The position numbers and the translations under genes were made by a program. A stretch of DNA of 64,000 bases from an uncultured Syntrophus sp. (lineage in GTDB: Bacteria > Desulfobacterota > Syntrophia > Syntrophales > UBA5619). This document shows, piece after piece, positions 16,152 through 64,000 of the stretch. The DNA is taken from contig CAZKHU010000001.1 in assembly GCA_964552725.1 (NCBI GenBank), forward strand, positions 2,941 through 66,940. The letters run 5' to 3'. The number at the start of each line of letters is the position of its first letter. Positions within the stretch are counted from its first letter, which is position 1. The notes under the pieces are model-generated. The model was not told the DNA's origin and made no database searches. It worked only from the letters and a program-made list of their open reading frames with translations.

Positions 16152-16162
16152 TTTTTCTACCT

Positions 16163-18016: not shown

Positions 18017-18021
18017 TGTAT

Positions 18022-18480
18022 TTATACCTTCTTCCCTAATTTCTTGAGGAGCTTTGTCGTTTTGGCGATATTCATTTCCCCGTGATACTCGCCGTCCACC
18101 ACAACAATCGGCCCCAGGGCGCAGGCCCCGAGGCAACCGACCGTCTCGAAAGAATACTCGAGGTCAGCGGTCGTCTCGCCATCCCTGATCCCCAGCATGC
18201 TGGTGATGTTGGCGGCAATGAATTCGGCGCCGCGAACATGGCAGGCGGTGCCCATGCAGAGGCTGATATGATGACGTCCTTTCGGTTTCAGGCTGAAAGC
18301 CTTGTAAAACGTCGCGACCTCGTACACCCGGCTTACCGGCACACCGAGATTGGCGCTGATTGCCATCAGGGCTTCCTTGGAAAGATAACCGAGTTCCTTC
18401 TGGACGTCCTGCATGATGGGAACCAGATAACTCCTGTCTCCGCCGTAGCCTTGCACGATTTCCTTTACCTTTTCTTCCAT
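18022..18480 (-). CDS. NuoE/HydC-like [2Fe-2S] subunit
   Basis: Thioredoxin-like 2Fe-2S motif CMGTACHVRG...CLGACALGP. Confidence 0.9.
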   Translation of the reverse strand: MEEKVKEIVQGYGGDRSYLVPIMQDVQKELGYLSKEALMAISANLGVPVSRVYEVATFYKAFSLKPKGRHHISLCMGTACHVRGAEFIAANITSMLGIRDGETTADLEYSFETVGCLGACALGPIVVVDGEYHGEMNIAKTTKLLKKLGKKV

Positions 18481-18518
18481 TATCTCTCTACCTCGTTTTC
18501 AAATTTTACGGTCGGCTG

Positions 18519-48239: not shown

Positions 48240-48352
48240 CAAAGCCCTCTGCTGCCACGGATTTTGTTCACTGCCATTAAATGCCGGGTCCTTTGCTTCC
48301 AAAATCATTCATTGTCTTGCACGGAAGCGGGAGATTGAAAGGAACAGCGCTG

Positions 48353-50800
48353 ATGAACGTTCTTGTAGTTGACGACCATGAAGAGAATCGATATTTGCTG
48401 GCAAGTCTTTTCAAGGGAAAAGGGCACGTCATACAGACTGCCGCAAATGGCGCCGAGGCCCTGGAAATTATAAAATCCGGCGGAGTCGAACTTATCATCA
48501 GCGATATCCTGATGCCGGTAATGGACGGCTTCAAGTTGTGCCTGGCGGTTAAAAACGATGAAAATCTGCGCGCCATCCCGTTTATAATTTACACTGCTAC
48601 CTATACAGGCCCTCAGGACGAGACCTTTGCGATGAAGATCGGCGCCAATCGCTTCATCATAAGACCCTGTGAACCGGAAGTTTTTCTGAAATCCGTTGAT
48701 GAGGTGATGGCGGAAGCAGCCCTCCGGGGGAAGGAAGCTCTGCCCAAACTGGCGGAAGAAGAGGATGTTTTCAAACTTTACAGCGAACGGCTGGTACGAA
48801 AACTCGAGCAGAAAATGCTCGAGGCGGAGCGGGAGATTCAAGCGCGCATGGCGGCGGAGAATGGGCTTCGCGAAAGCCAGAAAAGGTTGATCGCAGCACA
48901 GCGGATCGCAAAAATGGGAGATTTCACCTGGGATGTGGAAACCGGCCGGGTTACCTGGTCCGATGCGATGTTTGACCTTCTTAAATATGATAAAACAACG
49001 ACATTCAACTTCTCCCGGGTCAATTCCCAAATTCACCATCCCGCTGATCTGGAGCGAATCAACCAATGGTTGAATGAGTGTCTCGCATCCGGGCAAAAAA
49101 AGCTCACGCCCAATGAATACAGGATAATATGCAGCGATGGAGAAATTTTATATATTCGGACGGAGGGGATAATAGAACGTAAGACGGGAGAATCGCCCCG
49201 GGTGTTTGCCACCATTCAGGACATTACTGAACGCAGACAGGCGGAAGAAGCCCTCAAAAAGAGCGAGGAAGGCTACAAGGTGCTTATTGAAAATGCCGGG
49301 GAAGTCGTTCTGGTAGCACAGGATTGGCAATTCAAATTTTCCAACCGCCGGGTATTCGATTTTCTCGGGGTTACACCTGAAGAGCTGTCGGGAAAAACTT
49401 TTCTGGAATACATCCATCCGGAAGACAGGCAAACCATAGCTGAAAGACATGCAAAAAGATTGCAGGGAGAACACACACCGGGGATCTATTCCTGCCGCTT
49501 GATTGACAAAGCGGGCCGCACCAGATGGGCTAAAATCAACTCCGTTTTAATCGATTGGGAAGGGAAACCGGCAACACTCAACTTTCTGGAAGACATAACG
49601 GAGCGAAAATTCGCCGAGGAAGAACAGGAAAAGCTGCGCCGGCAGCTTATGCAATCCCAGAAGGTGGCGGCCATTGGCCGGCTCGCCGGAGGCGTCGCCC
49701 ATGATTTCAACAATATACTGAGCATTATTCTCGGCTACGGGGAAATCATGCTCGCCAAGATCCATCCCGGCGATCCTCTGCGGGAAGATATTCAGCAAAT
49801 CGTGAACGCCGGAAGACGTTCCGCGGAACTGACCCACCAGCTTCTGGCCTTCAGCCGCAAACAGACGCTGAAACCCGAAGCGCTGGATTTGAACAGCGTG
49901 GTGCTTGATCTTGAGAAGATGCTGAGACGGCTGATAGGCGAAAACATCGCCCTGACAATGGCACTTGCGGAAGACCTCGCCCATATCCTGGCCGACCCGG
50001 GGCAAATCGAGCAGGTGATCATGAATTTGGCCGTCAATGCCCGGGATGCCATGCCCGCGGGCGGCAAACTGGTCATGGAAACCGCCAACGTCGTCCTGGA
50101 TGAAGACTTTGCGCGTCTTCATCCAGGGACCGTACCGGGCAATTATGCGCTTCTTGCCGTCACCGACACCGGATGCGGAATGGACGAAGATACCATGGCC
50201 CAGATATTCGAGCCGTTCTTTACCTCGAAGGAAGAGGGGAAAGGCACAGGCCTGGGGCTCTCCACTGTTTACGGCATAGTAAAGCAGACTGGCGGAAATA
50301 TCTATGTGCACTCGGAGCCGGGAAATGGCACAACATTCAAAATATACCTTCCCCGGACAGAAGAGTTGCCCAAACTCAAAGCAACCGGGACGGCCAAAGA
50401 AGCATTGATGGGTGGCAACGAACATATTCTGGTTGTCGAGGATGAAGAAAGTCTCCGGAAATTGATGGATGCCATTCTTTCAAGACTGGGCTTCAAGGTA
50501 ACCCTGGCCGAAAACGGAGGCGCTGCACTGTCGCTGATGGAAGATGAAGGGCTTGCCCCCGACCTGGTGATCACGGATATGGTCATGCCGGGCATAAGCG
50601 GCGCGATGATGGTGGACAGGCTCCGCAGGAATCGTCCCAATCTCGAGGTTCTCTACATGTCGGGATACACGGAAGACACAATCGTCAATCAGGGAGTGCA
50701 CGATCCGTGGACATCCTTCATTCATAAACCCTTCAGCATCAAGGATCTTGCCTTAAAAGTCCGTGAGGCGCTGCAGAGAAAAGATGCATCATTCCCGTAA
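48353..50800 (+). CDS. hybrid sensor histidine kinase (REC-PAS-PAS-HisKA-HATPase-REC)
   Basis: N-terminal REC (VVDDHEE...SDILMPVMDG), two PAS-like segments, H-box GGVAHDFNNILS, DTGCGM / GTGLGLS, and a C-terminal REC (VVEDEES...TDMVMPGISG). Start moved to MNVLVVDD. Confidence 0.9.
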   Translation: MNVLVVDDHEENRYLLASLFKGKGHVIQTAANGAEALEIIKSGGVELIISDILMPVMDGFKLCLAVKNDENLRAIPFIIYTATYTGPQDETFAMKIGANRFIIRPCEPEVFLKSVDEVMAEAALRGKEALPKLAEEEDVFKLYSERLVRKLEQKMLEAEREIQARMAAENGLRESQKRLIAAQRIAKMGDFTWDVETGRVTWSDAMFDLLKYDKTTTFNFSRVNSQIHHPADLERINQWLNECLASGQKKLTPNEYRIICSDGEILYIRTEGIIERKTGESPRVFATIQDITERRQAEEALKKSEEGYKVLIENAGEVVLVAQDWQFKFSNRRVFDFLGVTPEELSGKTFLEYIHPEDRQTIAERHAKRLQGEHTPGIYSCRLIDKAGRTRWAKINSVLIDWEGKPATLNFLEDITERKFAEEEQEKLRRQLMQSQKVAAIGRLAGGVAHDFNNILSIILGYGEIMLAKIHPGDPLREDIQQIVNAGRRSAELTHQLLAFSRKQTLKPEALDLNSVVLDLEKMLRRLIGENIALTMALAEDLAHILADPGQIEQVIMNLAVNARDAMPAGGKLVMETANVVLDEDFARLHPGTVPGNYALLAVTDTGCGMDEDTMAQIFEPFFTSKEEGKGTGLGLSTVYGIVKQTGGNIYVHSEPGNGTTFKIYLPRTEELPKLKATGTAKEALMGGNEHILVVEDEESLRKLMDAILSRLGFKVTLAENGGAALSLMEDEGLAPDLVITDMVMPGISGAMMVDRLRRNRPNLEVLYMSGYTEDTIVNQGVHDPWTSFIHKPFSIKDLALKVREALQRKDASFP

Positions 50801-50939
50801 AGCGCCCCGTTATCTCTCCGGCCCGGAGAACAGCCCACTGAAAGCGTCTCCGGCATTACGATACAACCGGTCTGCCGGAGAGACTGAGCCCCGGGTTTGG
50901 AGACACAACGCTTAAATCCGTTTTGTAAAATCCACCATC

Positions 50940-51707
50940 CTATTCATTGCGCCACTGCGGTTTTCTCTTTTCGAGAAAGGCGACAAGCCCCTCCTGAGCA
51001 TCTGCCGTCTTCAGGAGTTCCTTCAGATAGATATCCTCGATGGTTCGCAAAGATGGCTCCAGTGGATCCATAAGCCCTGATTTGACAGCCTTTTTTGTCA
51101 GGCGGAGCACTTCGGCGCTCAGCTTTAGATAGGGTTTCAAAAAGGCCGCAGTCGCCGTTTCCAGCCCGTCTCGCCCCACCACCTGATTGATAAGCCCCAC
51201 ATCCCTGGCTTCCCCGGCCGAGATGGTTTTTCCGGAAAGGATCAACTCCATCGCCGCCTTCTGCCCGATGATGCGCGGCATTATCTGGGCGGCAATCGGG
51301 GGAAAGACGCCTACCTGGATCTCCGGCTGACCGAACTTGGCATCATCCGCGGCAATGACCAGATCGCAAAATATGGCCAGTTCGCAGCCGCCCCCGAGAC
51401 AGGAGCCGTAAACCGAGGCCGCAGTCGGAACACCAATGCCTTCCAGCCGACGGAACATCCCGTGAAAGGCGTCGATCATCTTCGGCGCCAGATCGCCCAT
51501 GTGTTCCCCCACATCCACGCCCGCCGAAAAGCACTTGCCTTTTGCCTGGAACAATACGGCCTTCAAATCCTTCTGTCCCCTCCACGAGTCCAGCACCCCA
51601 TTGATCTCCTTCATCATGGCGATATTCAGGACGTTAACCGGCGGCCTGTTGAGGGTGATTGTTCCAAGTCCATCCTGGATAATCGCTTCAATATGCTCGT
51701 AGCTCAT
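50940..51707 (-). CDS. enoyl-CoA hydratase/isomerase (crotonase); candidate cyclohexa-1,5-diene-1-carbonyl-CoA hydratase
   Basis: Crotonase motifs FSAGVDV and GGGCELA. AAGGAG SD upstream. The specific role is inferred only from its position next to had and bamA. Confidence 0.8.
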   Translation of the reverse strand: MSYEHIEAIIQDGLGTITLNRPPVNVLNIAMMKEINGVLDSWRGQKDLKAVLFQAKGKCFSAGVDVGEHMGDLAPKMIDAFHGMFRRLEGIGVPTAASVYGSCLGGGCELAIFCDLVIAADDAKFGQPEIQVGVFPPIAAQIMPRIIGQKAAMELILSGKTISAGEARDVGLINQVVGRDGLETATAAFLKPYLKLSAEVLRLTKKAVKSGLMDPLEPSLRTIEDIYLKELLKTADAQEGLVAFLEKRKPQWRNE

Positions 51708-51727
51708 TATCTTCCCGCTCCTTTTTC

Positions 51728-51774
51728 AATAAAAAGAGGCAGGCAGGTCTCTTCTTATGGGACGTGCCTGCCTC
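51728..51774 (-). terminator. Rho-independent terminator between bamA and the crotonase gene
   Basis: Minus-sense GAGGCAGGCA...(19-nt loop)...UGCCUGCCUC, a perfect 10-bp stem, followed by UUUUUAUUG. Confidence 0.65.
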
Positions 51775-51807
51775 CGGCTGTTCATATTGAGTCTTTAAAA
51801 GCCCCGG

Positions 51808-52950
51808 TTAAAGAGGTTTTCCCAGAACTCCCGCAAACATCTCCATATCCCAGGCCTTGCCTTCCACTATTTCCTGACGGAATTTAATGAAATCAATGGT
51901 ATCCTTGCCTGTGATCTTTTTGCTGTTGAAGGCGCCGAATCCGAGGAAGGCCTCGCCGCCCATGTTGGCGGCCAGCCAGTGACGGTGGGCATTCTTCATG
52001 GTATCCCAGAAAAATTTCTTCTTCTGGCGGACGCTGTCGATCGATTCCATCAAACAGCCGGGGAACAGATTGGCGAACGTCCAGACTATCTTGTCAACTT
52101 CCTTGTCGAGAAGCTCGAAATCGGCATTGGGCTGATGCAGTTTGACGAATTCCCGCGCCTCCTTGGCCTCGGCGCCGGTCTTGTTTTCGCCATAGACAAT
52201 CTCCCCGTCCTGCACGTAAGCATCCGTGATTACCTGGGGATTGCGCACCCATTTCCCATCCACCTTGAGTACCGGAACGACCTTGCTGATCAGGTTCTTG
52301 GCTTTCATCTTGTAGGCTGACCACATCTCACAGGAGATGCAGTTCCACATCGCATCCTCAATTCCGAGATACCAGGGCAGGAAGTCCGACGCGCCGCCGA
52401 CCGGGGCAGAACCGTGTTTTGGACCTGCCTGACCGTAGATCGCCAGATCAGAGGATACGGCAAGGTCGCACGCCATTCCTATCTCCTGACCGCCTGCTAC
52501 TCTCATGCCGTTCACCCGGCAAATGACCGGCTTCTTGCAGAAGAGAATCGAATCAACCATGTGGTTGAAAAGCTCCATGTACTGCCCGTACTCGTCGGGC
52601 CTCATGCTGTAGTATTCGCTGTACTCCTTCGTGTTGCCGCCCGTGCAAAACGCGTAGGGACCGGTGCCGGTAAAAACCACGGCCACAACGCTCCTGTCCA
52701 ATGAAGCATTTTCAAAGCCGGCAATAACTCCCTTGACCATTTCCGTCGTGTAGGAGTTGAACTGCTTGGGGTTATTGAGGCGAATCCACGCGGCAAAGAG
52801 ACCATCCACCACCTTTCCGTTCGGGTCGACAAGCGGTCTTTTCTCGTAAACCGTGCAGGGCGCCTCTGTTCCAAAGTGCAAATCCGTATGCAACGCATGA
52901 TCCTTGATGCCGTCTTCCCGCGGCAGCCATTCCAAACCTTTTAAAGACAT
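51808..52950 (-). CDS. bamA: 6-oxocyclohex-1-ene-1-carbonyl-CoA hydrolase (ring-cleaving; BamA/Oah)
   Basis: About 380-aa atypical crotonase with N-terminus MSLKGLEWLPRED... It contains KQFNSYTTEMV and AGGQEIGMACDLA. As I recall, the widely used bamA marker primers target these regions, and the DNA here closely matches them. GAAGGAGG SD upstream. Confidence 0.85.
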   Translation of the reverse strand: MSLKGLEWLPREDGIKDHALHTDLHFGTEAPCTVYEKRPLVDPNGKVVDGLFAAWIRLNNPKQFNSYTTEMVKGVIAGFENASLDRSVVAVVFTGTGPYAFCTGGNTKEYSEYYSMRPDEYGQYMELFNHMVDSILFCKKPVICRVNGMRVAGGQEIGMACDLAVSSDLAIYGQAGPKHGSAPVGGASDFLPWYLGIEDAMWNCISCEMWSAYKMKAKNLISKVVPVLKVDGKWVRNPQVITDAYVQDGEIVYGENKTGAEAKEAREFVKLHQPNADFELLDKEVDKIVWTFANLFPGCLMESIDSVRQKKKFFWDTMKNAHRHWLAANMGGEAFLGFGAFNSKKITGKDTIDFIKFRQEIVEGKAWDMEMFAGVLGKPL

Positions 52951-53046
52951 AGTGCTATTTCCTCCTTCTTTTAATTTGTGAACATTGAGCTTAGTCTTAT
53001 CGTTTCTTGCCTGCTTCTTTCACCCTTTTTGTCAAAACCTTGACCT

Positions 53047-54159
53047 TCAGACATCGAAATCGGGGATCAGAACAACCCGTTTCATCGGCGGCGTCTTGTG
53101 ATTCTCGGCAAAAGTCTGTTCGATTGCGCTCATCGGACGCGTCTCGACAAACTCCTCGATATTGACCTTCCCGCTCAGTATCATGTCCAGAACAATGGGG
53201 TAATATTCGGGCAGACATCCCCACGTTCCGATAATCTCGGCGTCAAAGGCCATAAGACGGCTGATGTTGTATTCGACGGATTTGACCCCGTACCCCACCA
53301 CTACAAGCTTTCCGGTAAAACTCAGCAGAGCCAGCGCCAGTTCCTGCCCTGCCTTGGAGCCAGTCACCTCAAATATCTTCCAGCCGGTGCCCGGAAGACC
53401 CTTTTCCTTGCAAAGCGCCCGGAACTCTTTGGAGATAGCTCCATTGTCCTTGTCAGTTGTGTTGATAACGAAGTCCGCTCCGAATTTCAGCGCTCTGTCC
53501 AGTTTTTCCTGATTGCGCGCCATCCCGATAACCGTCTTTGCGCCCAGCGCCTTGGCAACCTGCCCCATGTACTGACCAACTCCGCCGGTAATGCCCAATA
53601 CAATCACATTGTCCCCCGGCTGCAGGTCGGCCCTTTTGGCGGCCTGATAGGGCGTGGTCGCGGCATCGGCCACAACGGCAAGGTGGGAAAGAGGAATGCT
53701 GCCCCGGTTTTTCACCTCGCACAAATCAACGCTGGGAACAGGTATATGGCTTGAAAAACCGCCGTAGAGACCAATGCTGTTTCCGGGCATCTTCTGATCC
53801 AGGCACCGGTTCCCGCGCCCCGTTTTACAAAGATAGCATTGACGGCAGGGCATCACCGCGGGGATGATGACCTCTTTTCCTATCCATTTGGGATCGCCGG
53901 CAACCACTGTTCCCGAGATCTCGTGTCCCAGGGTTAAAGGCGGTTTGGAGACCGTGGGAACGCCATCATAAAAATATCCCAGGTCCGTGTGACACACCCC
54001 GCAACCAGCCACCTCCACCAGCACCTCCCCCGGCTTCAGCTCCGGGACCGGGAGCTCAGTCTTTTGCAGTTTGCCAGGGGTGATCTCCTTGGTCTCCCGG
54101 TTGAAGACGGTTGGTTGAACCATCTGCCAAGTCTTTATTTTATCGGGTACTCCTGCCAT
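53047..54159 (-). CDS. had: Zn-dependent alcohol dehydrogenase family; candidate 6-hydroxycyclohex-1-ene-1-carbonyl-CoA dehydrogenase
   Basis: GCGVCHTD, GHEISG and GITGGVG motifs. Start moved to MAGVPDKIKTW (AAGGAGGAG SD). It lies adjacent to bamA, as in known had-oah clusters. Confidence 0.75.
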   Translation of the reverse strand: MAGVPDKIKTWQMVQPTVFNRETKEITPGKLQKTELPVPELKPGEVLVEVAGCGVCHTDLGYFYDGVPTVSKPPLTLGHEISGTVVAGDPKWIGKEVIIPAVMPCRQCYLCKTGRGNRCLDQKMPGNSIGLYGGFSSHIPVPSVDLCEVKNRGSIPLSHLAVVADAATTPYQAAKRADLQPGDNVIVLGITGGVGQYMGQVAKALGAKTVIGMARNQEKLDRALKFGADFVINTTDKDNGAISKEFRALCKEKGLPGTGWKIFEVTGSKAGQELALALLSFTGKLVVVGYGVKSVEYNISRLMAFDAEIIGTWGCLPEYYPIVLDMILSGKVNIEEFVETRPMSAIEQTFAENHKTPPMKRVVLIPDFDV

Positions 54160-54249
54160 TTTCTCCTCCTTATGTTTTTTATCAAGTCCTCGCTGGCCAT
54201 AATGGTCCATCTTTCCTTGATAAGTTAATAACATTTCAGGGAAAACATC

Positions 54250-55002
54250 TCAGATCATTCCGTAGCCGCCATCGACGCAGAGCAACTGACCGGTAATGTA
54301 ATTGGCGTCGTCCGAGGCCAGAAAGACAAAAGCGGGCGCTATATCCTCGGCTTCGGCAAAGCGCTTGAGCAAAATTCTGTTCATGTAGATGTCGGCCAGC
54401 TTCTCGTCGGATCTGATCTTTTCGGTCATATCGGTAGCTACAATGCCCAGAGAGATGACATTCGCGCAGATGTTGTAGCGGGCCAGCTCCCGGGCAATGG
54501 ATTTGGTCATGCTCAGGACGCCTCCTTTCGCGGCGCTGTAATTGATCTGCCCCACGGTTCCCACAAGACCGGCAACCGACATCACATTGATGATCTTTCC
54601 GCTGTTTTGCTCCTTCATCAGGTTCGCCGCGGCCTGGGAACAGAAAAAGGCGCCCTTCAGATGGATGTCCACCACCTGATCCCACTGATCTTCCGTCATC
54701 TTGAGCAGCATGGCGGGCCTGGTAAATCCCGCATTATTGACCAGAACATCCAGTCTGCCGAACCTCTCCCGGGCAGCCGCGAAAAGGTTGTCCACGTCGG
54801 CCTTGCTGGCAATATCCGCCTTGACGGCAATAGCCTCGCTTCCCATTGCCGAGATGGCTTCCACCACCTCCCGGGCGGCGCCTTCATTGGAGGTGTAATT
54901 GACGATGACCTTGGCCCCTTCTCTTCCGTAGGCAAGTGCGACAGAGCGACCCACTCCGCGGCTGCCTCCGGTTACCAGTGCAATCTTGTCCTTGAGCTTC
55001 AT
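54250..55002 (-). CDS. SDR-family oxidoreductase (FabG-like)
   Basis: TGGSRGVG, NNAG and YSAAK motifs. Start moved to MKLKDKIALVTGG (GGGGAG SD), overlapping the upstream stop by 4 nt. Confidence 0.85.
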   Translation of the reverse strand: MKLKDKIALVTGGSRGVGRSVALAYGREGAKVIVNYTSNEGAAREVVEAISAMGSEAIAVKADIASKADVDNLFAAARERFGRLDVLVNNAGFTRPAMLLKMTEDQWDQVVDIHLKGAFFCSQAAANLMKEQNSGKIINVMSVAGLVGTVGQINYSAAKGGVLSMTKSIARELARYNICANVISLGIVATDMTEKIRSDEKLADIYMNRILLKRFAEAEDIAPAFVFLASDDANYITGQLLCVDGGYGMI

Positions 55003-56306
55003 AGATAACTCCCCTTTTCTGAAATCTGGTTTGTAGAACCCGGCATAGCGGAACCGACAAGCTGGCCCAGCCGTATCAGCGGCCACGAATAGGCGGCGCC
55101 TGCTTGCGGGATTTTATCCCATCTCTCCCTCAATTGATCGATGTCGTCTTTCCGCCACATCGCGCCGATAAGCAACCCAATGTAGTCCGCATACTTGCCG
55201 ACGGCTTGACCGCCGATAACCCTGCCGTCCAGCAAAACAACCCGCAAATAATCATCGCCGCTCTGTTTTTCGATAAGCTCGGATTTTCCCAGCATGCACT
55301 GGGTAGCCCGCATGGTTTTTCCGAAGGTAGAGGCATGGGTGTTAAAAAAATGCACTCGCGCAAATGCATAGGCGCCGAGGTATCCGACGTTATCCCCCAG
55401 AATGTTTTTTGCCACTATCTGCGCCTGTTCGATCGCGTTATGCTTCAACTGAAACATGACAATCTCTTCAGTGCAGGAATCAAAGGTTTCCACACAGTCG
55501 CCACAGGCATAGATATCGGATACGGAGGTTTCCATCTTCCTGTTGACCTTGATGCCACGCCCCGTTTCGATGAACGCGGTTCTGGCAAGCGCCGTCCCCG
55601 GGACCACGCCCGTGGCGACTACAACCGTATCGCATTCTATTTCCCGCTTATCCGTTACAACGCTTGCAACTTTTGCATCCCCCTTGATCTGGAGAACCTT
55701 TTCGCCGGTATGAATATGAATGCCATGCCGCTCCATTGCCGCTTCCAGTATCCTGGCCGTGGGTTCATCAAACAGGACCGGGAGAATCCAATCAAGAAGC
55801 TCGATGATGTGAACTTCATATCCTTTTTTCTTTAGCCCCTCGGCCGCTTCTATCCCTATCGCGCCGGAACCGATCACAACCGCCTTGCGGCCCTTGTGAA
55901 ATTTCAGCTTTTCCGTTTCCGACATCTGCTTGCAGCTGAAAACGCCGGCGTTGCGAATCCCCTCTATCGGGGGAAAGAAAAGAGCGCCGCCATGGGCCAG
56001 CACAAGCTTATCATAGCCGATTTCCGTGCCCGCTTCGGTTATGACATTCCTGGCCTCCGGATTAATAGCAACAACCTTGCTGTTAAACGTAACATTAATG
56101 CCCAGTTGTTTGTAATCCTCGATGGTTTTCTTGAAGACGTCCTTTTTCCCGATATTGCCGGCAAGATAATACGGAAGCGAGCATGGATCATATTCCGGAA
56201 CATCCTCGGCAGAAAGGATGCAAATCTCGATCTCCTTGTCCCTCTGCCGCAGTTCAGCGGCGACCCGATTGCCGGCAATCCCGTTTCCAACAATAACCGT
56301 TTTCAT
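54999..56306 (-). CDS. FAD-dependent pyridine nucleotide-disulfide oxidoreductase family protein
   Basis: Two dinucleotide folds (VIVGNGIAGNRVA and VVIGSGAIGIEAA) and a YACGDC motif. Confidence 0.85.
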   Translation of the reverse strand: MKTVIVGNGIAGNRVAAELRQRDKEIEICILSAEDVPEYDPCSLPYYLAGNIGKKDVFKKTIEDYKQLGINVTFNSKVVAINPEARNVITEAGTEIGYDKLVLAHGGALFFPPIEGIRNAGVFSCKQMSETEKLKFHKGRKAVVIGSGAIGIEAAEGLKKKGYEVHIIELLDWILPVLFDEPTARILEAAMERHGIHIHTGEKVLQIKGDAKVASVVTDKREIECDTVVVATGVVPGTALARTAFIETGRGIKVNRKMETSVSDIYACGDCVETFDSCTEEIVMFQLKHNAIEQAQIVAKNILGDNVGYLGAYAFARVHFFNTHASTFGKTMRATQCMLGKSELIEKQSGDDYLRVVLLDGRVIGGQAVGKYADYIGLLIGAMWRKDDIDQLRERWDKIPQAGAAYSWPLIRLGQLVGSAMPGSTNQISEKGSYL

Positions 56307-56318
56307 GGCGTTTTTATC

Positions 56319-56810
56319 CTAATTGGGGAATATGGCCCGGGAACGCGCCGCCCGCTCCCTTGCTGCTCCCCTTGTCAACATATCATCTTGGGTTATCCTG
56401 AGCGCCCCTTCTCGGCAGGCCACAACGCACCATGGCCCGGCTTCGTCGCCCCTGCACATATCGCAGGTCATAGTCTGGCCCGTGTAAGGGTTCACCGCCG
56501 GGCTGCCGGCCGGACATATATAGACGCACGCCCGACAGCCGATACAGACATCCGTGTTCGTTGCAACTGTCCCGTTTTCCTGTCTTATCCGGGCATTCAT
56601 TGGACACACCTTGATGCAGGGGGCATTATCGCACGCCATGCAGATGACAGGGACTTCAAGCTTCTGGGATTCCAGTCTGATAATCTTAAGCATGGCCAAC
56701 TTTGGGTTGATAACGCCTTGATGCTTCATAGAGCAGGCAAGCAAACATTCCTGACATCCGGTGCATTTCAGGGGATCAATTGCCAATTGCTCGCGTCTTG
56801 CTTCCATCAT
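56319..56810 (-). CDS. multi-cluster 4Fe-4S ferredoxin-domain protein
   Basis: CTGCQECLLAC, CMACDNAPCIKVCP, CIGCRACVYICP and CDMCRGD...C motifs, resembling a DmsB/HybA-like four-cluster layout. Confidence 0.8.
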   Translation of the reverse strand: MMEARREQLAIDPLKCTGCQECLLACSMKHQGVINPKLAMLKIIRLESQKLEVPVICMACDNAPCIKVCPMNARIRQENGTVATNTDVCIGCRACVYICPAGSPAVNPYTGQTMTCDMCRGDEAGPWCVVACREGALRITQDDMLTRGAARERAARSRAIFPN

Positions 56811-57064
56811 GCCGCCTTTGTAAAATTAAATAAAAACTCTTATCTCTGCAAATTCGATGTTCTCCGGCTGGACGGCGGCCTAAACTGCCGTTTTTTCTGA
56901 ATAACATTGTACCCGAATATCTAAAGCAGACCAATTTGTCAAGACAAACTTTCATCCCGAATCCCCTGCCTCCCGGTCTTGTCTTTGCGGTTTATTTCAG
57001 TCCCGGCATAGCCATTTTCCCCCGGGCTGTCCCGTCTTGAACTTTTCCATCGCTTTCGCCCCTT

Positions 57065-59269
57065 TTAAAGATTAAGCGACTTGAGCAACCGGGAAAAATT
57101 GGATCTGGGCAACCCCAGGATGTCGGCGGCTGTCGATTTTTTCCCTCCTGCAGCATTCAGAGTCTGGAGAACAATATTTTTCTTGAAATCCCTGATGGCC
57201 TCGTCCAGATGCCTGCCCGGAAAATTTGTTGTGGCTGAGTTGTCCCACAGCTCCCTGGGCAGATCGTCCAGGGTTATTGTATCATTCTTTGAAACAATGA
57301 CTAATCTTTCCACAACATTTTCAAGCTCCCGGACATTGCCCGGCCACGAGTACCCCAGCAGAACATCTTTGACTTTGGGAGAAAGCTTCATCTCTTTTTG
57401 CCTGATATATATATATTTATTGAGGAAAAAATCAAGGAGGGCGCCTATGTCCTCTTTTCTTTCCCGCAGGGGAGAAAGGGTAATGGGAAAAACCGCCAAA
57501 CGATAATACAGATCCGAGCGAAAGCTCATCTCTTCAATCCCTTTTTGCAGATCCTTGTTAGTGGCGGCGATAACCCTGACATCAACATGAATCGATACTT
57601 TTGAACCTATCCGCTGAATCTCCTGCTCCTGAAGCACCCTCAGAAGCTTTGTTTGAGTTTTCATGGAAAGATCGCCGACTTCATCCAGGAAAATAGTGCC
57701 CCCGTTGGCCAGCTCGAACATCCCTATGCGCTTTTCATAGGCGCCGGTAAAAGCTCCCCTCTCATGCCCGAAAAGTTCACTCTCGATCAAGTCGTCTGGT
57801 ATCGCTGCGCAATTTACCTTGACTAATGAACGGCCATTTCTGGGACTCATTTCATGAATGGCATTGGCGATATGTTCCTTGCCCGTACCAGTCTCCCCAT
57901 AGATTATTACCGTTGTAGAGTTTGGCGCCACCTTTTTCACCAGCTCCATCACTTCAAGCATTTTGGGACTTCGGCCTATTACAAACTCGGTTTTGATTCT
58001 TCTTTTCAAATAAAGGTTTTCCTGCTCAATCCTCTCTGAAATGGTTTTTATATGGTTTTTCTCATCCACCAATTTCTGGTAGGTGATTGCGTTTTCAAGA
58101 GCCACTCCGACTTGCTGTCCAAAAGTGTAGAAGAAATCTTTCTGTTCATCCGGAAAAGCTTCCCTGTTCTTAGAATAAATTCTCAGAATTCCAATCCTTT
58201 TTCGCTTGGAAATGATCGGAATCACTATGAAAGAGCGTATCTTTCTTTTAAGACAAAAATCATGACAATCCCCAGGCAATTTGGCCGGAATCAGATTATC
58301 AACAAGAATAACATGCGGCGATCGCCAGAATTCCTCATTCGCATCTTCCGGCGACGGAAAATCCCTCCCGCCGGATTCATCCCCGTCCATGTTCCGGAAC
58401 AATACAGATTTGAAACTCCCGTTTTGCAGTAGACTGACGGAAAAGGTGTCGAATCCCAGACTCTCCAGCAATGTCGAAATCTGGTACAGGACAGCCTTTT
58501 GTTCCAGGCCGTCATCAAGAAGTTTTGCCATTTGATAAAGGCTTGACAATTTAGTCATTTTTCTGGAGATATCCTGATTTGCCTGAACAAGTTCCGCTGT
58601 TCTTTCCTGGACGGTCTTCTCTAAAAGCAGACTGAATCTTTCCTTTTCCTCATAAAGCATTGCGTTTTCAATGGCCAGACTTATATGTCCGGCGAATAAT
58701 TGCAGACTCTCCATATCTTCGGGCAGTATGGGGGTTCTGCTGTAAAACTTGTCTCCGGTCAGGACTCCCAGAACCCTTTTGCGGCCAATAAGCGGAATAA
58801 CTCCATATTCTCTTGTATCGGAAACCTTCAAAAGTTTTTCGCTCACCCTTTTGTCCCGGCAGGCATTTTCCACATAGATAGGCTTCCCGGTTTTAACTAC
58901 CTGGACCTCCACGGCGTTTTCATCCATCCGGAATCCGATACACTTATCAACAATAGAGGCCTTCTCTCTTTTGACGCGATCAATCCAGACAACACAGCGC
59001 AAATAATCTTCCTGAAGAAGATAAATCAGACACCTCTCAAAGTTTACCCCAACGCCCACCTTTTGAACAAGGATCTGGAAGAGCTGGTTGATGTTCATGG
59101 TGGAGTGAATCTCTTTGTTCAGCTCCGTCAAGACTATCAATTCATGCAACTTCCGCTTGATCAAATCGGAGGAACCCATTTCAGATAGAATCAATCGGTT
59201 CGTCACCTTCCCCTTCCGAAAACAAATATCATCCGTTGTTTCATTTTCCCGGCTCTGCGGCGATCGCAT
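57065..59269 (-). CDS. sigma-54-dependent transcriptional activator with two N-terminal GAF-like domains
   Basis: GETGTGKE Walker A, GAFTGA, RVIAATN and a C-terminal HTH (STAADILGLPRSNFSRLLKSL). About 400 aa of GAF-like sensor region. The start is uncertain. Confidence 0.9.
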   Translation of the reverse strand: MRSPQSRENETTDDICFRKGKVTNRLILSEMGSSDLIKRKLHELIVLTELNKEIHSTMNINQLFQILVQKVGVGVNFERCLIYLLQEDYLRCVVWIDRVKREKASIVDKCIGFRMDENAVEVQVVKTGKPIYVENACRDKRVSEKLLKVSDTREYGVIPLIGRKRVLGVLTGDKFYSRTPILPEDMESLQLFAGHISLAIENAMLYEEKERFSLLLEKTVQERTAELVQANQDISRKMTKLSSLYQMAKLLDDGLEQKAVLYQISTLLESLGFDTFSVSLLQNGSFKSVLFRNMDGDESGGRDFPSPEDANEEFWRSPHVILVDNLIPAKLPGDCHDFCLKRKIRSFIVIPIISKRKRIGILRIYSKNREAFPDEQKDFFYTFGQQVGVALENAITYQKLVDEKNHIKTISERIEQENLYLKRRIKTEFVIGRSPKMLEVMELVKKVAPNSTTVIIYGETGTGKEHIANAIHEMSPRNGRSLVKVNCAAIPDDLIESELFGHERGAFTGAYEKRIGMFELANGGTIFLDEVGDLSMKTQTKLLRVLQEQEIQRIGSKVSIHVDVRVIAATNKDLQKGIEEMSFRSDLYYRLAVFPITLSPLRERKEDIGALLDFFLNKYIYIRQKEMKLSPKVKDVLLGYSWPGNVRELENVVERLVIVSKNDTITLDDLPRELWDNSATTNFPGRHLDEAIRDFKKNIVLQTLNAAGGKKSTAADILGLPRSNFSRLLKSLNL

Positions 59270-59397
59270 ACGGCCTTTGATGGGATTAACGGCAAACCGC
59301 CACAGCCGGGTGATTTTCCCGGGAACACAGCCTGTTAAACTCCGGCGTCGCCTTTGTCATTAACCTTGCCCTCCATCGCAAAATCAGGAATATTTTT

Positions 59398-59690
59398 CTA
59401 TCCTAATTTACGAGATTTGGCAAGATAAGGGCTAATGATAAGGGCTAATGATGGAAAACAGAGGGCAAACGCGGTAAGAATCATGACCATGAGAAAAGGG
59501 AAGATGCCCTGGAATACCGTCTCGAGGGGAACGTCATTGGCTATCCCCTTTGCCACATAAACGTTCACCCCCACCGGCGGCGTTACGACACCTATGCAGG
59601 TTGTCCGAACAATAATTACGCCAAACCTATCCGAAGGCGGTCACAATGGGATAAATAATTGGACCGGAAAATAATTGTTCCATTTTAATT
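59398..59690 (-). pseudogene. 3' remnant of a TRAP transporter large permease (DctM) gene
   Basis: The minus-strand translation FGVIIVRTTCIGVVTPPVGVNVYVAKGIANDVPLETVFQGIFPFLMVMILTAFALCFPSLAL matches the DctM C-terminus. The upstream piece PIIYPIVTAFG is in another frame. There is no start codon and about 330 N-terminal codons are absent. A 13-bp duplication disrupts the last codons. Confidence 0.6.
59424..59449. repeat. perfect 13-bp tandem duplication inside the DctM remnant
   Basis: gataagggctaat occurs at 59424-59436 and 59437-59449. Removing one copy restores a canonical ...FPSLALILPNLVN* terminus. Confidence 0.85.
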
Positions 59691-59750
59691 CGCTCACAGG
59701 CGCAGAGACTGCCTCATCCACACTCCCTTGTTTTATTCATGGTCAAATTT

Positions 59751-61355
59751 CTAATCCCTGGCCTTCTGGCGATTTCTGTCCTGCTGGGCCAGCTCTGCAA
59801 GACCGCCTTTCCCAAACTTGTTGATCTTGACCCCTCCGGAGAGACGGGGAAAATCGTTCAACAGACAAAGCTCGTCAGGAAGTTTGAAGGGCGCAACTCT
59901 TCCCTTGAGAAATTCCCTCAGTTCCTGCAGAGACAATGAACTGTCTCCTCTGATGATTACACACGCGCAAATGTTTTCTCCAAGGACAGGGTTCGGGGTG
60001 GCGACAACGCAAGCCTGCTCCACGGCAGGATGCTCCAGCATAATGGATTCCAGCTCATAGGGAGAAATTTTGAACCCTCCCCGATTGATCAAATCTTTGA
60101 TCCGCCCATGGATTTTGAGATACCCATCCGCTGTTTTGGAGACAAGATCGCCCATGAAAAGCCAACCGTCAACGATCTGTTTTCTGGTCTCCTCGGGATT
60201 TTTCCAGTAGCCCTTCATCACGTGCCATCCGGACAAGGCCAACTCGCCGATTGCTCCGGCAGGCATTTCCTCCCTGGTCACGGGATCCACCACGCGTACC
60301 GAGGTGCCGGCTACAGGCAGGCCGATAAACTGTTCTCTTATCTCAAGGGGAGAGGGATAGGGACAGATGATGCCCAATCCCGGCCCCACTTCGGAAGCCC
60401 CCCAGAAGGTGGTGAGATAGACGCCCAACTCGTTTTGCACCCTGGCAATCAATCCTTCCGGCGCAATCTGCCCCGCAATCAGGCCGGCACGAATGGACGC
60501 AAGGTCATAGTTGCCGATATCCCGGTTATTTAACTCCAGGAGGTAATGGGCCGGCGAGCCAAGCTGAAGGGTTACCCGCTCCTTCTGGATAATTTCGAAC
60601 GCCCCCCGAGGATTGAACTTGTCCATCAAAACGACGCTGGCCATAAGCAGAAAAGGCTGGATGAGGATCGCCCCGCACCCGTAAGAGTGGCACATGGGCA
60701 AAAAACCGATGAAGACGTCGTCGGAAGAGGCGCCGACGCCAAGGGCGTACTGCATGCCTGCCTTAGCCGCCTGCCCCTGGGTAATCATTGTTCCCTTCGG
60801 CATTCCTGTTGTTCCTGACGTGTAGATAAGCATGGAAAGGTCTTCGTGGGGGTTGATCTCCGGCTTGAGATATTTTCGTCCCCGCCCGTTTCTGATCATT
60901 GCATCAAAAGTATGCACCCCCGGGCCGTCCCCTTCCCCCACGATAAAAATGGCCTGGAGCAGCGGCACTTCCGCCTTGATTTCCAGCAGGGCATCGAGAT
61001 AATCATAGCCCTCCCACTCCCGGAAAATAAAGACCGCCTTCGCCTCCGAATTGGTCAGTATAAAATGGGCTTCGGTCTTCCGGTAGCTGGGATTGGCCCA
61101 GGCGACTATTATCCCGAGTTTCTGGAGGGCATAAAAAATGACTATGAACTCCAGGGAATTTTTCATGTACATAACTACCCTGTCGCCCTTTTTGTATCCC
61201 TGTTCAGCAAGACTCGCCGCAAATGCATCCGCCAGTTCGTTCAGCTCCTGATAGGTCACCCGCTTTTCACCATCTATTACCGCTGTTTTCGCAGGCGCCT
61301 GCATCGCCCCCGACTCAAGAATTTGGCCAGTGGACATATTATCGTAAGTCTTCAT
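59751..61355 (-). CDS. AMP-forming acyl-CoA ligase (aromatic/alicyclic acid-CoA ligase-like)
   Basis: IYTSGTTGMPKG, GWLFMGD and GRIKDLINRGGFKISP motifs. GAAGGAGGG SD upstream, with TAATG overlap onto the upstream ORF. Confidence 0.85.
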   Translation of the reverse strand: MKTYDNMSTGQILESGAMQAPAKTAVIDGEKRVTYQELNELADAFAASLAEQGYKKGDRVVMYMKNSLEFIVIFYALQKLGIIVAWANPSYRKTEAHFILTNSEAKAVFIFREWEGYDYLDALLEIKAEVPLLQAIFIVGEGDGPGVHTFDAMIRNGRGRKYLKPEINPHEDLSMLIYTSGTTGMPKGTMITQGQAAKAGMQYALGVGASSDDVFIGFLPMCHSYGCGAILIQPFLLMASVVLMDKFNPRGAFEIIQKERVTLQLGSPAHYLLELNNRDIGNYDLASIRAGLIAGQIAPEGLIARVQNELGVYLTTFWGASEVGPGLGIICPYPSPLEIREQFIGLPVAGTSVRVVDPVTREEMPAGAIGELALSGWHVMKGYWKNPEETRKQIVDGWLFMGDLVSKTADGYLKIHGRIKDLINRGGFKISPYELESIMLEHPAVEQACVVATPNPVLGENICACVIIRGDSSLSLQELREFLKGRVAPFKLPDELCLLNDFPRLSGGVKINKFGKGGLAELAQQDRNRQKARD

Positions 61356-62293
61356 TAACCCTCCTTCATTTCAGGGCAAGCAACTAACAGGGAAAGGCCT
61401 CCAAAAAACGCTTGAGCGCCCTCCAGCCGGTACAGTGCATGGGAACGATCACCTTGGGGGGCCACTTCCACAAGCGCGGAAACAGTCTCCTCGATAATGG
61501 GCTCAAAGAAGGATCCGGTAAGATGGAATCCGCCGAGAATCGCATACACTTGCTCCATGCCGGCGATTTTCCTCGAATAGAGCACCGTATTGACAATCCC
61601 TGAATGAGCGCATCCCGATATTATCACCAGCCCCTTTCCTTTCAGACAGACAACAAGAGCCTGATCATCACGGATAGGGTCCGGCGCCAATTCATCGCCT
61701 TGCCCGATCCTTGCAATCGGGAATCCCCTCTCAAAACCTGTTTTCCGTTCTACCTCGCCCGTCACCAGAATCGTGCCGCCTGCTAAAGATACAGGCGTTG
61801 GGGATTCCCAAATTTCGGCGCCTCGCCTCAGCAGCTCTTCTCTGACCAGTGTATCAGGAAAGCGCTCTTTTCTCCCGTCCGGCCATTTCAGAAAACGCGG
61901 GGCAAGAAAGACCCCGGGATGAACCACGAGGGGAACCGCCCAGGAAAGCTTTTCCATGAGGGGATAAAGGGCGCCGGTATGATCCATGTGCGCCTGACTC
62001 AGGACAATCGCCTCAACTAGGCCGATGTCTATCCCCAGCATCTTCATGTTGTGGAGAACGCCTGTTGCATTGTAACCGGTGTCGAAGATTATGCTGTGGG
62101 ACTCTTCCCCCCGGAAATTTCTAACGAGCATCGACAGTCCATGCTCGGCGACAAGCGAATCTCTTGGAATCTCGGCGCCGCTTCGCAAGACGGGGCGGAC
62201 GACAAGATCATTGCTCCCCAGCAATAAATCGACATAATTATCCATCAGGACAGTTATCTCAACTCGCTCTGCCGGTTGGATTGTTGAAGACAT
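61355..62293 (-). CDS. MBL-fold metallo-hydrolase with an apparent +1 frameshift near its 3' end (possible pseudogene or sequencing error)
   Basis: HxHxDH-type motif SQAHMDHTG and GGFHL. The conserved C-terminal ...VIVPMHCTGWRA... is encoded in another frame (track ORF 61384..61596). The switch maps to the G6 run at 61456-61461. Confidence 0.7.
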   Translation of the reverse strand: MSSTIQPAERVEITVLMDNYVDLLLGSNDLVVRPVLRSGAEIPRDSLVAEHGLSMLVRNFRGEESHSIIFDTGYNATGVLHNMKMLGIDIGLVEAIVLSQAHMDHTGALYPLMEKLSWAVPLVVHPGVFLAPRFLKWPDGRKERFPDTLVREELLRRGAEIWESPTPVSLAGGTILVTGEVERKTGFERGFPIARIGQGDELAPDPIRDDQALVVCLKGKGLVIISGCAHSGIVNTVLYSRKIAGMEQVYAILGGFHLTGSFFEPIIEETVSALVEVAPQGDRSHALYRLEGAQAFFGGLSLLVACPEMKEG

Positions 62294-62494
62294 TAAATGC
62301 GCTTCCTATAGTTCAAAATCCATGCCTCACACGCCCCTTCATGTCGTCTTCAATCATCAATCAACGGCTAAAGTTGCATCCATGCTAACCACTCTCGAAA
62401 ACACACAAGAGCAGTCGCCCTGTAACAAATAAACCTTTCATCATGATGTATCTTAAAATCGCGGGCACCCTGTGAAAACTGCCAACAATTGTAG

Positions 62495-63340
62495 CTATTT
62501 AGCCAGATATCCTCCGTCGACAGCGACAATGCTTCCCGTCATATAACTTGACGCGCCCGATGCCAGCAGCAGAGCCACCCCGACAATCTCGGAAGTTTTC
62601 CCGAACCGCCTGAGCGGTATCTGTTTTATCAGGCCCTTATAAACCCTTTCCGAAGCCCTCAATCCCTCAGACAAAGCCGTTTCTATGTAGTGAAGGGCGA
62701 TGGCGTTGATGCGGATATTGTGCCGAGCCCATTCAAGGGCGAGGCTCTTCGTCAGGAGTATCACCCCCGCTTTTGAGGCGCAGTAGGCGGGTGCGCGGGT
62801 TACGCCGGTTATCCCGGCGGTGGTTGCAATGTTGACTATGCTGCCCCCGCCGCCCTTTATCATCTCTTTGCCAATGTACCTGCAGCACAGAAATGTTCCG
62901 CGCAGATTGACGGCAACCACCTTATCCCACGCTTCGACGGATAAGTCCTCCGTCGGCGTGAAATCAAGCGGGGCAATTCCCGCATTGTTTACCAGCACAT
63001 CGATCTTTCCGTATTCGTCCATTGCCTGCCGCGCGGCATTCTCCACGGCTTTCTCGTCGGATATGTCCGCTTTTATTGCAATGCATCGCGCCCCCAAAGC
63101 TTCGGCCTGTCTTATAGTTTCTTCTGCGGCAACCAGATCGACAATAACCAGAGACGCCCCGTTCTGCGCAAACGTCAAGGCAATGTCTTTTCCAAGTCCC
63201 TGAGCGCCCCCCGTCACCAAGGCCACCCGGCCATCAAGTCTGAACAGTTCCGATGCATCCACGCTTATGTTCTCTATGCCTTTCTTATTGAACACATCAA
63301 TGATTTCATATCCGGGTAACCCATAATGGGCTCCAGACAA
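62495..63340 (-). CDS. SDR-family oxidoreductase
   Basis: TGGAQGLG, NNAG and YCASK motifs. An alternative GTG start at 63262 would remove the 67-bp overlap with the upstream gene. Confidence 0.85.
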   Translation of the reverse strand: MSGAHYGLPGYEIIDVFNKKGIENISVDASELFRLDGRVALVTGGAQGLGKDIALTFAQNGASLVIVDLVAAEETIRQAEALGARCIAIKADISDEKAVENAARQAMDEYGKIDVLVNNAGIAPLDFTPTEDLSVEAWDKVVAVNLRGTFLCCRYIGKEMIKGGGGSIVNIATTAGITGVTRAPAYCASKAGVILLTKSLALEWARHNIRINAIALHYIETALSEGLRASERVYKGLIKQIPLRRFGKTSEIVGVALLLASGASSYMTGSIVAVDGGYLAK

Positions 63341-64000
63341 TTAACATCCGTAAGCAGATTGACATTTGCCTTCCCGGTCCAGCCGTGCGGCGCCAGCACC
63401 ACGCCCTCCGCCACCCTTTCGTCCACCCGGGCTTTCATTGTCACTTCCCCCCGATTCGTCTCAACAACAACGCCATCGCCATCTTTGACCCCATATTTCT
63501 GCGCTGTCAAAGGACCTACCTCGAGAAAAGGCTCCGGGCTCTTTTCATGCAGCTCCGCAATCCCCCGATACTGGCTATGCGTGTAATAATTACTTCTCAT
63601 CCCGGTTGATAAAATCAAGGGATATTTATCCAGGAAGTCCCTGGAACTTTTCACTGGACTTCTCGCCGGCTCCAGATAAGTAGGCAGCGGGTCGAACCCA
63701 ACCTTCTCCAAAGCTTCGCTGTATATTTCAATTTTTTTCGAGGGAGTCGAAAACTGGCCTTTGGACATGCCATACTGCTTCTGTTGATAATAATCGCCTT
63801 CGGGCTTTTCATTGAGGAGATAGTCAAAGGAAAGACCTGTCGGAGCAAGTTCAAACGCCACAAGCTCTTCTTCCGTTTTCCAGGGGAAAAATTCGCTCAA
63901 CCCCAGCCTTTTGGCAAGCTCCGTCAGAAGCTTCCACTCCGACCAGCTCTCATAAAACGGCTCGATGCATTTTTTACGCAGCATCAGGAAGGGCAGGCAG
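63274..64000 (-). CDS. molybdopterin/tungstopterin (bis-PGD, DMSO-reductase family) oxidoreductase, C-terminal part (5' end outside window)
   Basis: The frame is open to the window edge. The C-terminal molybdopterin-dinucleotide-binding barrel is present (GDGVVVETNRGEVTMKARVDERVAEGVVLAPHGW), and KIEIYSEALEKVGFDPLPTYLEP is typical of this family. Confidence 0.8.
   Translation of the reverse strand, partial: CLPFLMLRKKCIEPFYESWSEWKLLTELAKRLGLSEFFPWKTEEELVAFELAPTGLSFDYLLNEKPEGDYYQQKQYGMSKGQFSTPSKKIEIYSEALEKVGFDPLPTYLEPARSPVKSSRDFLDKYPLILSTGMRSNYYTHSQYRGIAELHEKSPEPFLEVGPLTAQKYGVKDGDGVVVETNRGEVTMKARVDERVAEGVVLAPHGWTGKANVNLLTDVNCLEPIMGYPDMKSLMCSIRKA

Follow-up and report, generated by a model that had tools for sequence, protein, structure and literature searches.

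In Syntrophus aciditrophicus the genes of the lower pathway that opens the reduced benzoate ring, bamQ (had), bamA (oah) and bamR (dch), are SYN_01655, SYN_01654 and SYN_01653, respectively (PMC8942843). Their counterparts in Geobacter metallireducens are Gmet_2151, Gmet_2088 and Gmet_2150. In the Azoarcus bzd cluster, genes for a dienoyl-coenzyme A (CoA) hydratase, a dehydrogenase and a hydrolase are accompanied by those for the ferredoxin BzdM and the putative NADPH:ferredoxin oxidoreductase BzdV (PMC5658619). In AorABC, the NAD+-reducing tungsten aldehyde oxidoreductase (AOR) of Aromatoleum aromaticum, AorA carries four clusters and AorC is the FAD subunit that reduces NAD+ (PMC6365974); a preprint describes the complex as building a filament (bioRxiv 10.1101/2023.01.23.525143). 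PadH and PadI (N-terminal domain) of the NADH-dependent phenylglyoxylate dehydrogenase likewise couple NAD to an oxidoreductase of the ferredoxin type in anaerobic aromatic metabolism. The way in which obligate anaerobes and syntrophs keep NADH, ferredoxin and low-potential ring reduction in balance is only partly understood, and a redox module stably attached to the pathway offers a testable lead. Here we describe such a case in a 64,000-nt stretch of DNA from an uncultured Syntrophus sp. (GenBank assembly GCA_964552725.1, contig CAZKHU010000001.1), hereafter the window, in which genes for a polyferredoxin and a flavoprotein (together, the pair) precede genes for a short-chain dehydrogenase/reductase (SDR), Had, Oah and a crotonase. 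Coordinates are positions within the window (Table 1), and relative loci fetched for comparison carry L-numbers (n=115).

The core of this cluster is the ordinary, already known had/bamA/dch lower pathway for opening the reduced benzoate ring, and the only novelty is that, in one subclade, the pair has become fused to this operon. The interpretation that we favour, with slightly better than even confidence, is that the four-gene unit from the SDR to the crotonase covers hydration, oxidation, ring hydrolysis and the next oxidation, and that the pair represents an AorC/AorA-like module connecting NAD(H) with a polyferredoxin; the gene for its partner, probably a tungsten enzyme of the AOR family, would lie elsewhere. 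All seven open reading frames (ORFs) of the initial annotation of this DNA, at 50940-59269 on the minus strand, lie in the order and with the spacings given there, and the order had-oah-crotonase corresponds to bamQ-bamA-bamR of S. aciditrophicus (PMC8942843). The names of the closest homologues place the host in the same taxonomic order as S. aciditrophicus, Syntrophales. Compared with the bamQ-bamA-bamR systems, the hydratase here scores below the dch cutoff, an SDR gene precedes had and a redox pair heads the operon.

The identities of had and oah had been proposed from the ORFs alone, and both proteins exceed the curated equivalog cutoffs of the respective NCBIfam models. Had scores 487.9 bits on TIGR03201 (cutoff 338.65) and contains the ADH_N and ADH_zinc_N domains of the zinc-ADH fold; its gene ends 96 bp upstream of oah. 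The true start of had is more likely to be at 54159, giving a protein of 370 aa, because the gene calls of relatives (L001, L111-L114) are 368-370 aa long. Oah scores 563.3 bits on TIGR03200 (cutoff 464.45) over profile positions 1-357 of 360, and therefore the 380-aa protein falls within BamA/Oah and not outside it; an ECH_1 domain inside a protein of this length gives the expected crotonase fold with a long C-terminal extension. For the crotonase, the top of 72 matching NCBIfam models is TIGR03189 (dch), yet the score of 184.2 bits is below the cutoff of 292.5. Its solved relatives are ordinary enoyl-CoA hydratases, and homologues 75-97% identical to it are labelled 'enoyl-CoA hydratase/isomerase family' by NCBI and dch by JGI. 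The crotonase gene directly follows oah in the window and in many of the loci recovered in a metagenome scan with BamA, which yielded at least 593 confirmed relatives from the 600 candidate stretches considered; 80 of them (69-88% identical) were kept and are referred to as the 80 BamA loci. Since its position relative to bamA and bamQ is that of SYN_01653, the crotonase is a probable BamR/dch-type hydratase.

The SDR was initially taken for an add-on that accompanies the redox genes and lies outside the textbook pathway. Instead, 22 of the 80 BamA loci encode an SDR, 58-81% identical to that of the window, immediately before had, and in most of these 22 a crotonase gene follows oah. The protein is FabG-like according to NCBIfam. 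Among solved structures it is closest to 7SUB chain A in the Protein Data Bank (1e-101, 65% identity over 248 residues), which scores 342 bits against 252 bits for the next entry and shares 64-70% identity with those full-length SDRs next to had whose identity to the SDR of the window is 72% or higher. We take 7SUB ('3-oxoacyl-reductase') to be Hcd1, the putative 3-hydroxypimelyl-CoA dehydrogenase of S. aciditrophicus; its own function is only proposed. Oxidation of 3-hydroxypimelyl-CoA is the step after Oah, and for this reason the SDR most likely belongs in the textbook pathway, judging by its sequence as a probable Hcd1-like 3-hydroxypimelyl-CoA dehydrogenase and as the first gene of a conserved lower-pathway unit. 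The SDR partner is thus widespread, probably intrinsic to the pathway and has a solved homologue. For annotation, this means that the SDR before had deserves a place in the bam lower-pathway unit.

The similarity of the pair to AorABC lies in the four clusters of the ferredoxin and in the 395 residues over which the flavoprotein can be aligned. The ferredoxin has 16 cysteines in four complete [4Fe-4S] motifs, the cluster number of AorA, and AorA is also its closest solved relative (8C0Z chain C, 8e-30). It further resembles the HycB subunits of formate hydrogenlyase and HDCR, and PadI is its second-best NCBIfam model, far below the equivalog cutoff of 700. For the flavoprotein, an alignment with AorC (8C0Z chain E) spans residues 1-395 (3e-37), and one with the NCBIfam PadH model spans residues 3-396, at 222 bits and again far below the equivalog cutoff (475). 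Only with AorC and PadH does the alignment reach through the C-terminal domain to residue 395; alignments with CoADR, Npsr and Nox end near residue 345. Two Rossmann motifs, GNGIAG and GSGAIG, are present, so that together with a cysteine in an xxCxLPY context the FAD/NAD(P)H motif set of the CoADR/Npsr/Nox group is found as well. The flavoprotein may prefer NADH, because the second beta-strand of its NAD site ends in Glu (VHIIE). An AlphaFold model (predicted local distance difference test, pLDDT, 84) was compared with solved structures using Foldseek, giving template modelling (TM) scores of 0.76-0.81 to CoADR/Npsr and AorC alike (AorC, 0.76-0.78). Fold was therefore rejected as an arbiter between an AorC-like and a CoADR/Nox-like assignment, the TM scores being indistinguishable. 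Annotating members of this flavoprotein family as 'NADH oxidase' is probably misleading.

The usual genomic home of the pair is beside a tungsten AOR gene. The flavoprotein family is large, with 62-87% identity across Desulfobacterota, and in most Desulfobacterota the pair stands beside an AorB-type gene. In a survey of one genome per species (25 loci), the pair was found divergent from a 646-aa AFOR gene with an AorA-like ferredoxin of its own in 16 loci, the AFOR being 82-87% identical to that of Desulfosarcina. A more distant AFOR occurs in two further loci, L026 among them; of the remainder, five do not extend far enough for a judgement and two count as informative negatives. Neither had nor oah is present in any of the 25. 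The AOR context of the pair recurs in Desulfosarcina variabilis and in one further metagenome contig, and a neighbourhood of AOR, MoaD, MoeB, pyridine disulfide oxidoreductase plus a 4Fe-S ferredoxin was catalogued in 2006 (PMC1779556). The AFOR beside the pair was considered as a candidate BamB and rejected: its full-length best matches are AOR and AorB, the match to BamB is partial, and the true BamB of L115, for comparison, scores 1133 bits to 4Z3W. Conversely, no flavoprotein homologue was found in any of the 80 BamA loci, even at E<1e-5; 60 of them include 2 kb or more of flanking sequence on one side. The window differs from AorABC in that it contains no AorB and no MoaD-like maturation genes. 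In AOR-linked relatives, moreover, a second AorA-like ferredoxin stands beside AorB, and the pair is a separate, divergent unit.

The AOR-linked loci vary in organization. In L026 (7283-11299), from a metagenome-assembled genome (MAG) of Thermodesulfobacteriota, ferredoxin, AFOR and flavoprotein genes are colinear, like aorABC, and in L030 (9525-13215), from a Rokubacteria MAG, the order is ferredoxin-flavoprotein-AFOR. L004 (5177-9380) and most other AOR-linked loci encode two different AorA-like polyferredoxins, one after AorB and one before the flavoprotein on the opposite strand; one possibility is that these represent separate 'repeat' and 'cap' ferredoxins of a filament. ThiF and small ORFs of MoaD/ThiS size are also found in AOR-linked loci.

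The pair is joined to SDR-had-oah-crotonase in one Syntrophales subclade only, where three arrangements occur; GCA_054635285.1 and JGI Ga0376277 and Ga0208373 are examples of had-linked relatives. The window, L001, L111 and L112 have the order ligase-activator-ferredoxin-flavoprotein-SDR-had-oah-crotonase. In L114, O-demethylase-like genes are followed by ligase-ferredoxin-flavoprotein-SDR-had-oah-crotonase, with no activator. In L002, L003 and L113, an ADP-forming acyl-CoA synthetase gene on the other strand is followed by ferredoxin-flavoprotein-hybrid histidine kinase-SDR-had-oah-crotonase. A neighbour-joining tree places the had-linked flavoproteins in a single clade inside the AOR-linked family, with an AOR-linked Syntrophaceae MAG (L006) as its sister. 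The ferredoxin and the flavoprotein are under purifying selection: ratios of nonsynonymous to synonymous substitution rates (dN/dS) are 0.09-0.15 for the ferredoxin and 0.09-0.17 for the pair, with 0.03-0.08 for the pathway genes and dS up to 1.3. Because the had-linked clade is nested in the AOR-linked family and both genes are under purifying selection, the link between the pair and had is derived, lineage-specific and maintained, and is no general feature of bam clusters. The initial annotation had made its case depend on co-conservation of the ferredoxin, flavoprotein and SDR genes with had and bamA. This holds for the SDR (22/80) and does not for the pair (flavoprotein, 0/80), which is linked to them in the one Syntrophales subclade.

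These data also bear on the idea that the pair has no function and is what an AOR cluster, since lost, left behind beside the had unit. Within the subclade no AOR genes accompany the pair, L002 still has a ThiS/MoaD-like gene upstream of it, and a remnant of the transporter gene dctM near the cluster shows that the region has been rearranged. Nevertheless, we consider a leftover extremely unlikely. Both genes are intact in every relative, as the dN/dS of 0.09-0.17 at dS up to 1.3 attests, all Cys motifs are kept and the conserved box upstream is still in place. The same dN/dS values led us to reject decay of the pair following AOR loss.

Several observations weigh against the assignment of the pair to an AOR-type module attached to a complete lower pathway. 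The crotonase does not reach the equivalog cutoff of TIGR03189 (dch), and the equation of 7SUB with Hcd1 is tentative. No AOR/BamB-family gene was detected in the 64 kb by tblastn with AOR, and no AFOR domain in the scanned ORFs, so the partner is hypothetical. The pair stays beside the had unit through three rearrangements, which hints at a functional tie to the pathway and not at passive relocation. Finally, the top sequence and fold matches of the flavoprotein are Npsr, CoADR, CoA-persulfide reductase and Nox, and its Cys42, in the motif DPCSLPYY, is invariant among all 119 homologues and lines up with the catalytic Cys of Nox/CoADR, where AorC carries Met.

The last observation speaks for the view that the flavoprotein is a Cys-based enzyme of the CoADR, persulfide reductase or Nox type, which would keep CoA or thiols reduced or remove O2 or peroxide to the benefit of O2-sensitive enzymes of CoA esters and tungsten enzymes, with the polyferredoxin as an extra electron donor or acceptor. 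The CoADR, persulfide reductase and NADH oxidase structures (6PFZ, 8A56, 3CGB, 1NPX) give the highest sequence and fold scores and conserve the position of the catalytic Cys. The neighbours of the pair, CoA-dependent enzymes here and an O2-sensitive AOR elsewhere, would suit such a role. However, known members of this group have no obligatory polyferredoxin partner and need no four-cluster ferredoxin, and their gene context is unrelated to AOR; by contrast, a four-cluster ferredoxin gene lies directly upstream of the flavoprotein gene in every full-length homologue locus, which is atypical of the CoADR/Npsr/Nox group. In addition, the C-terminal domain is aligned through residue 395 with AorC and PadH only, and the L026 homologues are arranged as aorA-aorB-aorC. 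We therefore regard a thiol enzyme as unlikely.

The persistence of the link would fit a pair that belongs to the benzoyl-CoA pathway as an integral redox module and feeds or withdraws electrons for ring reduction or dienoyl-CoA chemistry, for example docked on a BamBC-type tungsten reductase. The adjacency to SDR-had-oah-crotonase is kept in the three arrangements despite rearranged flanks, and the flavoprotein and SDR ORFs overlap by 4 bp (ATGA). BamB and BamC belong to the same families as AorB and AorA (PMC6365974 among the sources), in G. metallireducens an AOR gene and a 4Fe-4S gene are benzoate-induced (PMC1924859), and AOR-type genes are found near oah-had in other lineages (L090, L093, L094, L100). 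BzdM and BzdV, which the initial annotation had correctly placed in the Azoarcus bzd cluster (PMC5658619), provide a functional precedent; the analogy to the pair is one of function, compared by annotation only. The bzd cluster, however, encodes a class I reductase that uses BzdM, whereas no reductase was found in this window. As initially reported, no benzoyl-CoA reductase turned up in the window, either by tblastn or in Pfam/NCBIfam domain scans; no class I benzoyl-CoA reductase domain was found in the scan, which covered ORFs of at least ~210 aa and left ~15 shorter ORFs outside. No BamB was found in the window by tblastn or seen in the flanks of relatives, outside the subclade the flavoprotein is encoded in 0 of the 80 BamA loci, and in L113 and L002 the gene for a histidine kinase comes between the pair and the SDR. 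On established thermodynamic grounds, NAD(P)H alone cannot drive benzoyl-CoA reduction, which also counts against this possibility. On balance, an integral module appears improbable.

It has also to be considered that NADH formed by Had and the SDR is re-oxidised by the pair, whose polyferredoxin would hand the electrons on to a Mo/W enzyme resembling formate dehydrogenase, of the type encoded at 63274-64000, as a route of syntrophic electron disposal. An FdhA/NasC-like molybdopterin oxidoreductase is encoded upstream on the same strand, its homologues are found near the pair and AOR (L008), near had-oah (L052) and near bamBCD-fdhD-bamE (L115), and the ferredoxin resembles HycB of formate hydrogenlyase and HDCR. 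The Mo/W gene, though, lies four genes and the activator away and is absent from the flanks of L113 and L114, making this route highly improbable. More generally, recruitment of the pair from its AOR setting into the benzoyl-CoA pathway, as a dedicated NAD(H) wire that carries electrons from the NADH of Had and the Hcd1-like SDR to a W/Mo enzyme, with a BamBC-type dearomatising reductase and the upstream FdhA-like protein as candidates, is doubtful. If true, it would constitute a new electron route in the syntrophic, reversible metabolism of aromatic and alicyclic acids.

According to the interpretation that we favour, an AOR-type module beside the lower pathway, the operon would serve the steps after ring reduction in anaerobic benzoate degradation. 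In its core, the Hcd1-like SDR would oxidise 3-hydroxypimelyl-CoA, and the SDR gene would be followed by bamQ/had, bamA/oah, the hairpin and the gene for the bamR/dch-type hydratase. Either relocation of the pair or loss of the AOR gene next to it would have left its own promoter box attached, and in this genome the pair would be transcribed into the lower-pathway genes, with which it is connected through the 4-bp overlap with the SDR. By homology, the flavoprotein would exchange electrons between NAD(H) and FAD, and the four clusters of the ferredoxin would wire them to or from a partner enzyme outside the window, most probably an AOR-family W-enzyme elsewhere in the genome.

Evidence on regulation comes from the sequences upstream of the ferredoxin gene and downstream of oah. 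The alignment of regions upstream of the ferredoxin gene contains a conserved box, TTTGTCTTGACAAA, with an invariant core at 56936-56947. The core, TTGTCTTGACAA, holds a sigma-70-like -35 element (TTGACA) inside an inverted repeat, TTTGTC-TT-GACAAA. The core is repeated exactly upstream of the ferredoxin gene in L006, an AOR-linked locus, and in each had-linked one; none of the remaining loci among the 115 fetched has it. Its retention in both settings suggests that the pair has its own promoter or operator. From the 4-bp overlap of the flavoprotein and SDR genes we infer that this promoter may read on into the SDR gene and beyond in the window. The activator is a sigma-54 enhancer-binding protein with Sigma54_activat (240 bits), GAF (60-200), GAF_2 (269-392), AAA_lid_14 and HTH_8 domains, the GAFTGA motif and a Walker A motif (GETGTGKE). 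It is 96% identical in L111/L112; L113 and L114 have none at this place, which makes it a non-obligate component of the unit. Neither pattern nor scored searches gave an acceptable match to a sigma-54 -24/-12 promoter (GG-N10-GC) in 50801-50939, 51708-51807, 56811-57064, 59270-59750 or 62294-62494; there is thus no promoter evidence that the sigma-54 activator controls this operon. The hairpin that separates oah from the crotonase gene has a minimum free energy of -33.7 kcal/mol (z -3.27). It was missed by a consensus terminator scan because its loop is long. The stem GGCAGG/CCTGCC and the T run are kept in seven loci, L033, L035, L038 and L112-L114 among them, in which the inner-stem sequences differ and the encoded proteins are only ~80% identical to those of the window. 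The hairpin probably attenuates or lowers read-through, or stabilises the transcript. An Rfam scan of 48-64 kb gave no match.

Table 1. Features of the had-linked cluster in the window, listed in the direction of transcription.
Feature	Position (nt)	Strand	Size	Remarks
AMP-forming acyl-CoA ligase	59751-61355	minus		upstream of activator; AMP-binding 261 bits
Sigma-54 enhancer-binding protein (activator), GAF-GAF-AAA+-HTH_8	57065-59269	minus		Pfam
Gap, activator to ferredoxin	56811-57064		254 bp	
Conserved box TTGTCTTGACAA	56936-56947	minus		~125 bp upstream of ferredoxin start
Polyferredoxin, AorA/HycB type	56319-56810	minus	163 aa	16 Cys, four [4Fe-4S] motifs
Gap, ferredoxin to flavoprotein			12 bp	
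FAD/NAD(H) flavoprotein, AorC/PadH-like	54999-56306	minus	435 aa	Pyr_redox_2 204 bits
FabG-like SDR	54250-55002	minus	250 aa	adh_short_C2 221 bits
had/bamQ	53047-54234	minus		TIGR03201
oah/bamA	51808-52950	minus	380 aa	TIGR03200
Hairpin + T5, terminator-/attenuator-like	~51731-51775	minus		between oah and crotonase
Crotonase in bamR/dch position	50940-51707	minus	255 aa	ECH_1 187 bits

The flanks of the cluster differ between relatives. Orthologues of the ligase accompany the cluster (97% identical in L112, 86% in L114), and the ligase scores below the cutoff of every NCBIfam model. In L114 (1-2912), genes for a URO-D family methyltransferase, a RACo corrinoid activator and a pterin-binding methyltransferase lie directly upstream of ligase-ferredoxin-flavoprotein-SDR-had-oah-crotonase; such O-demethylase-type genes hint at methoxylated aromatic substrates. 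A hybrid histidine kinase/response-regulator gene, at 48281-50800 on the plus strand of the window, is found near the cluster in all close relatives examined but L114. The copies of relatives (L111/L112; L002/L113) differ in place and orientation and are 31-33% identical to that of the window. The gap between ligase and activator holds, at 59398-59640 on the minus strand, an 80-aa C-terminal remnant of the TRAP transporter protein DctM (PF06808 positions 354-403 of 413, 8e-11), which has no start codon and contains, near 59440-59470, a 13-bp tandem duplication, ATCATTAGCCCTT. This remnant is the scar of a rearrangement at the ligase-activator junction.

Further upstream, at 63274-64000 on the minus strand, the C-terminal part of an FdhA/NasC-like Mo/W-bis(pyranopterin guanine dinucleotide) oxidoreductase is encoded by an ORF that is open at the window edge. 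Its homologues lie divergent from bamB-bamC-bamD-fdhD-bamE in L115, inside a pair-carrying AOR cluster in L008 and directly before had-oah in L052, so that this enzyme is a recurrent companion of benzoyl-CoA and tungsten-enzyme genes. The interval from the Mo/W enzyme gene to the ligase gene (61355-63340, minus strand) encodes a 312-aa protein of the metallo-beta-lactamase fold together with another SDR (37% identity to the had-linked one), and these may form a peripheral pathway. No record matches the metallo-beta-lactamase-fold protein exactly, and the contig of the window has a single other representative, a metagenome contig of 8.6 kb. Below 47 kb the window contains mostly housekeeping genes. 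The nearest 2-oxoacid:ferredoxin oxidoreductase genes lie ~35 kb from the pair, a difference from PadH/PadI. They are found at 15432-20680 on the minus strand, where the alpha and beta subunits are followed by a 657-aa NuoF-like protein (Complex1_51K, NADH_4Fe-4S, Fer4) and a Fer2_4/Fer4 protein, and these genes may encode an NAD-linked or Bfu-type 2-oxoacid oxidoreductase.

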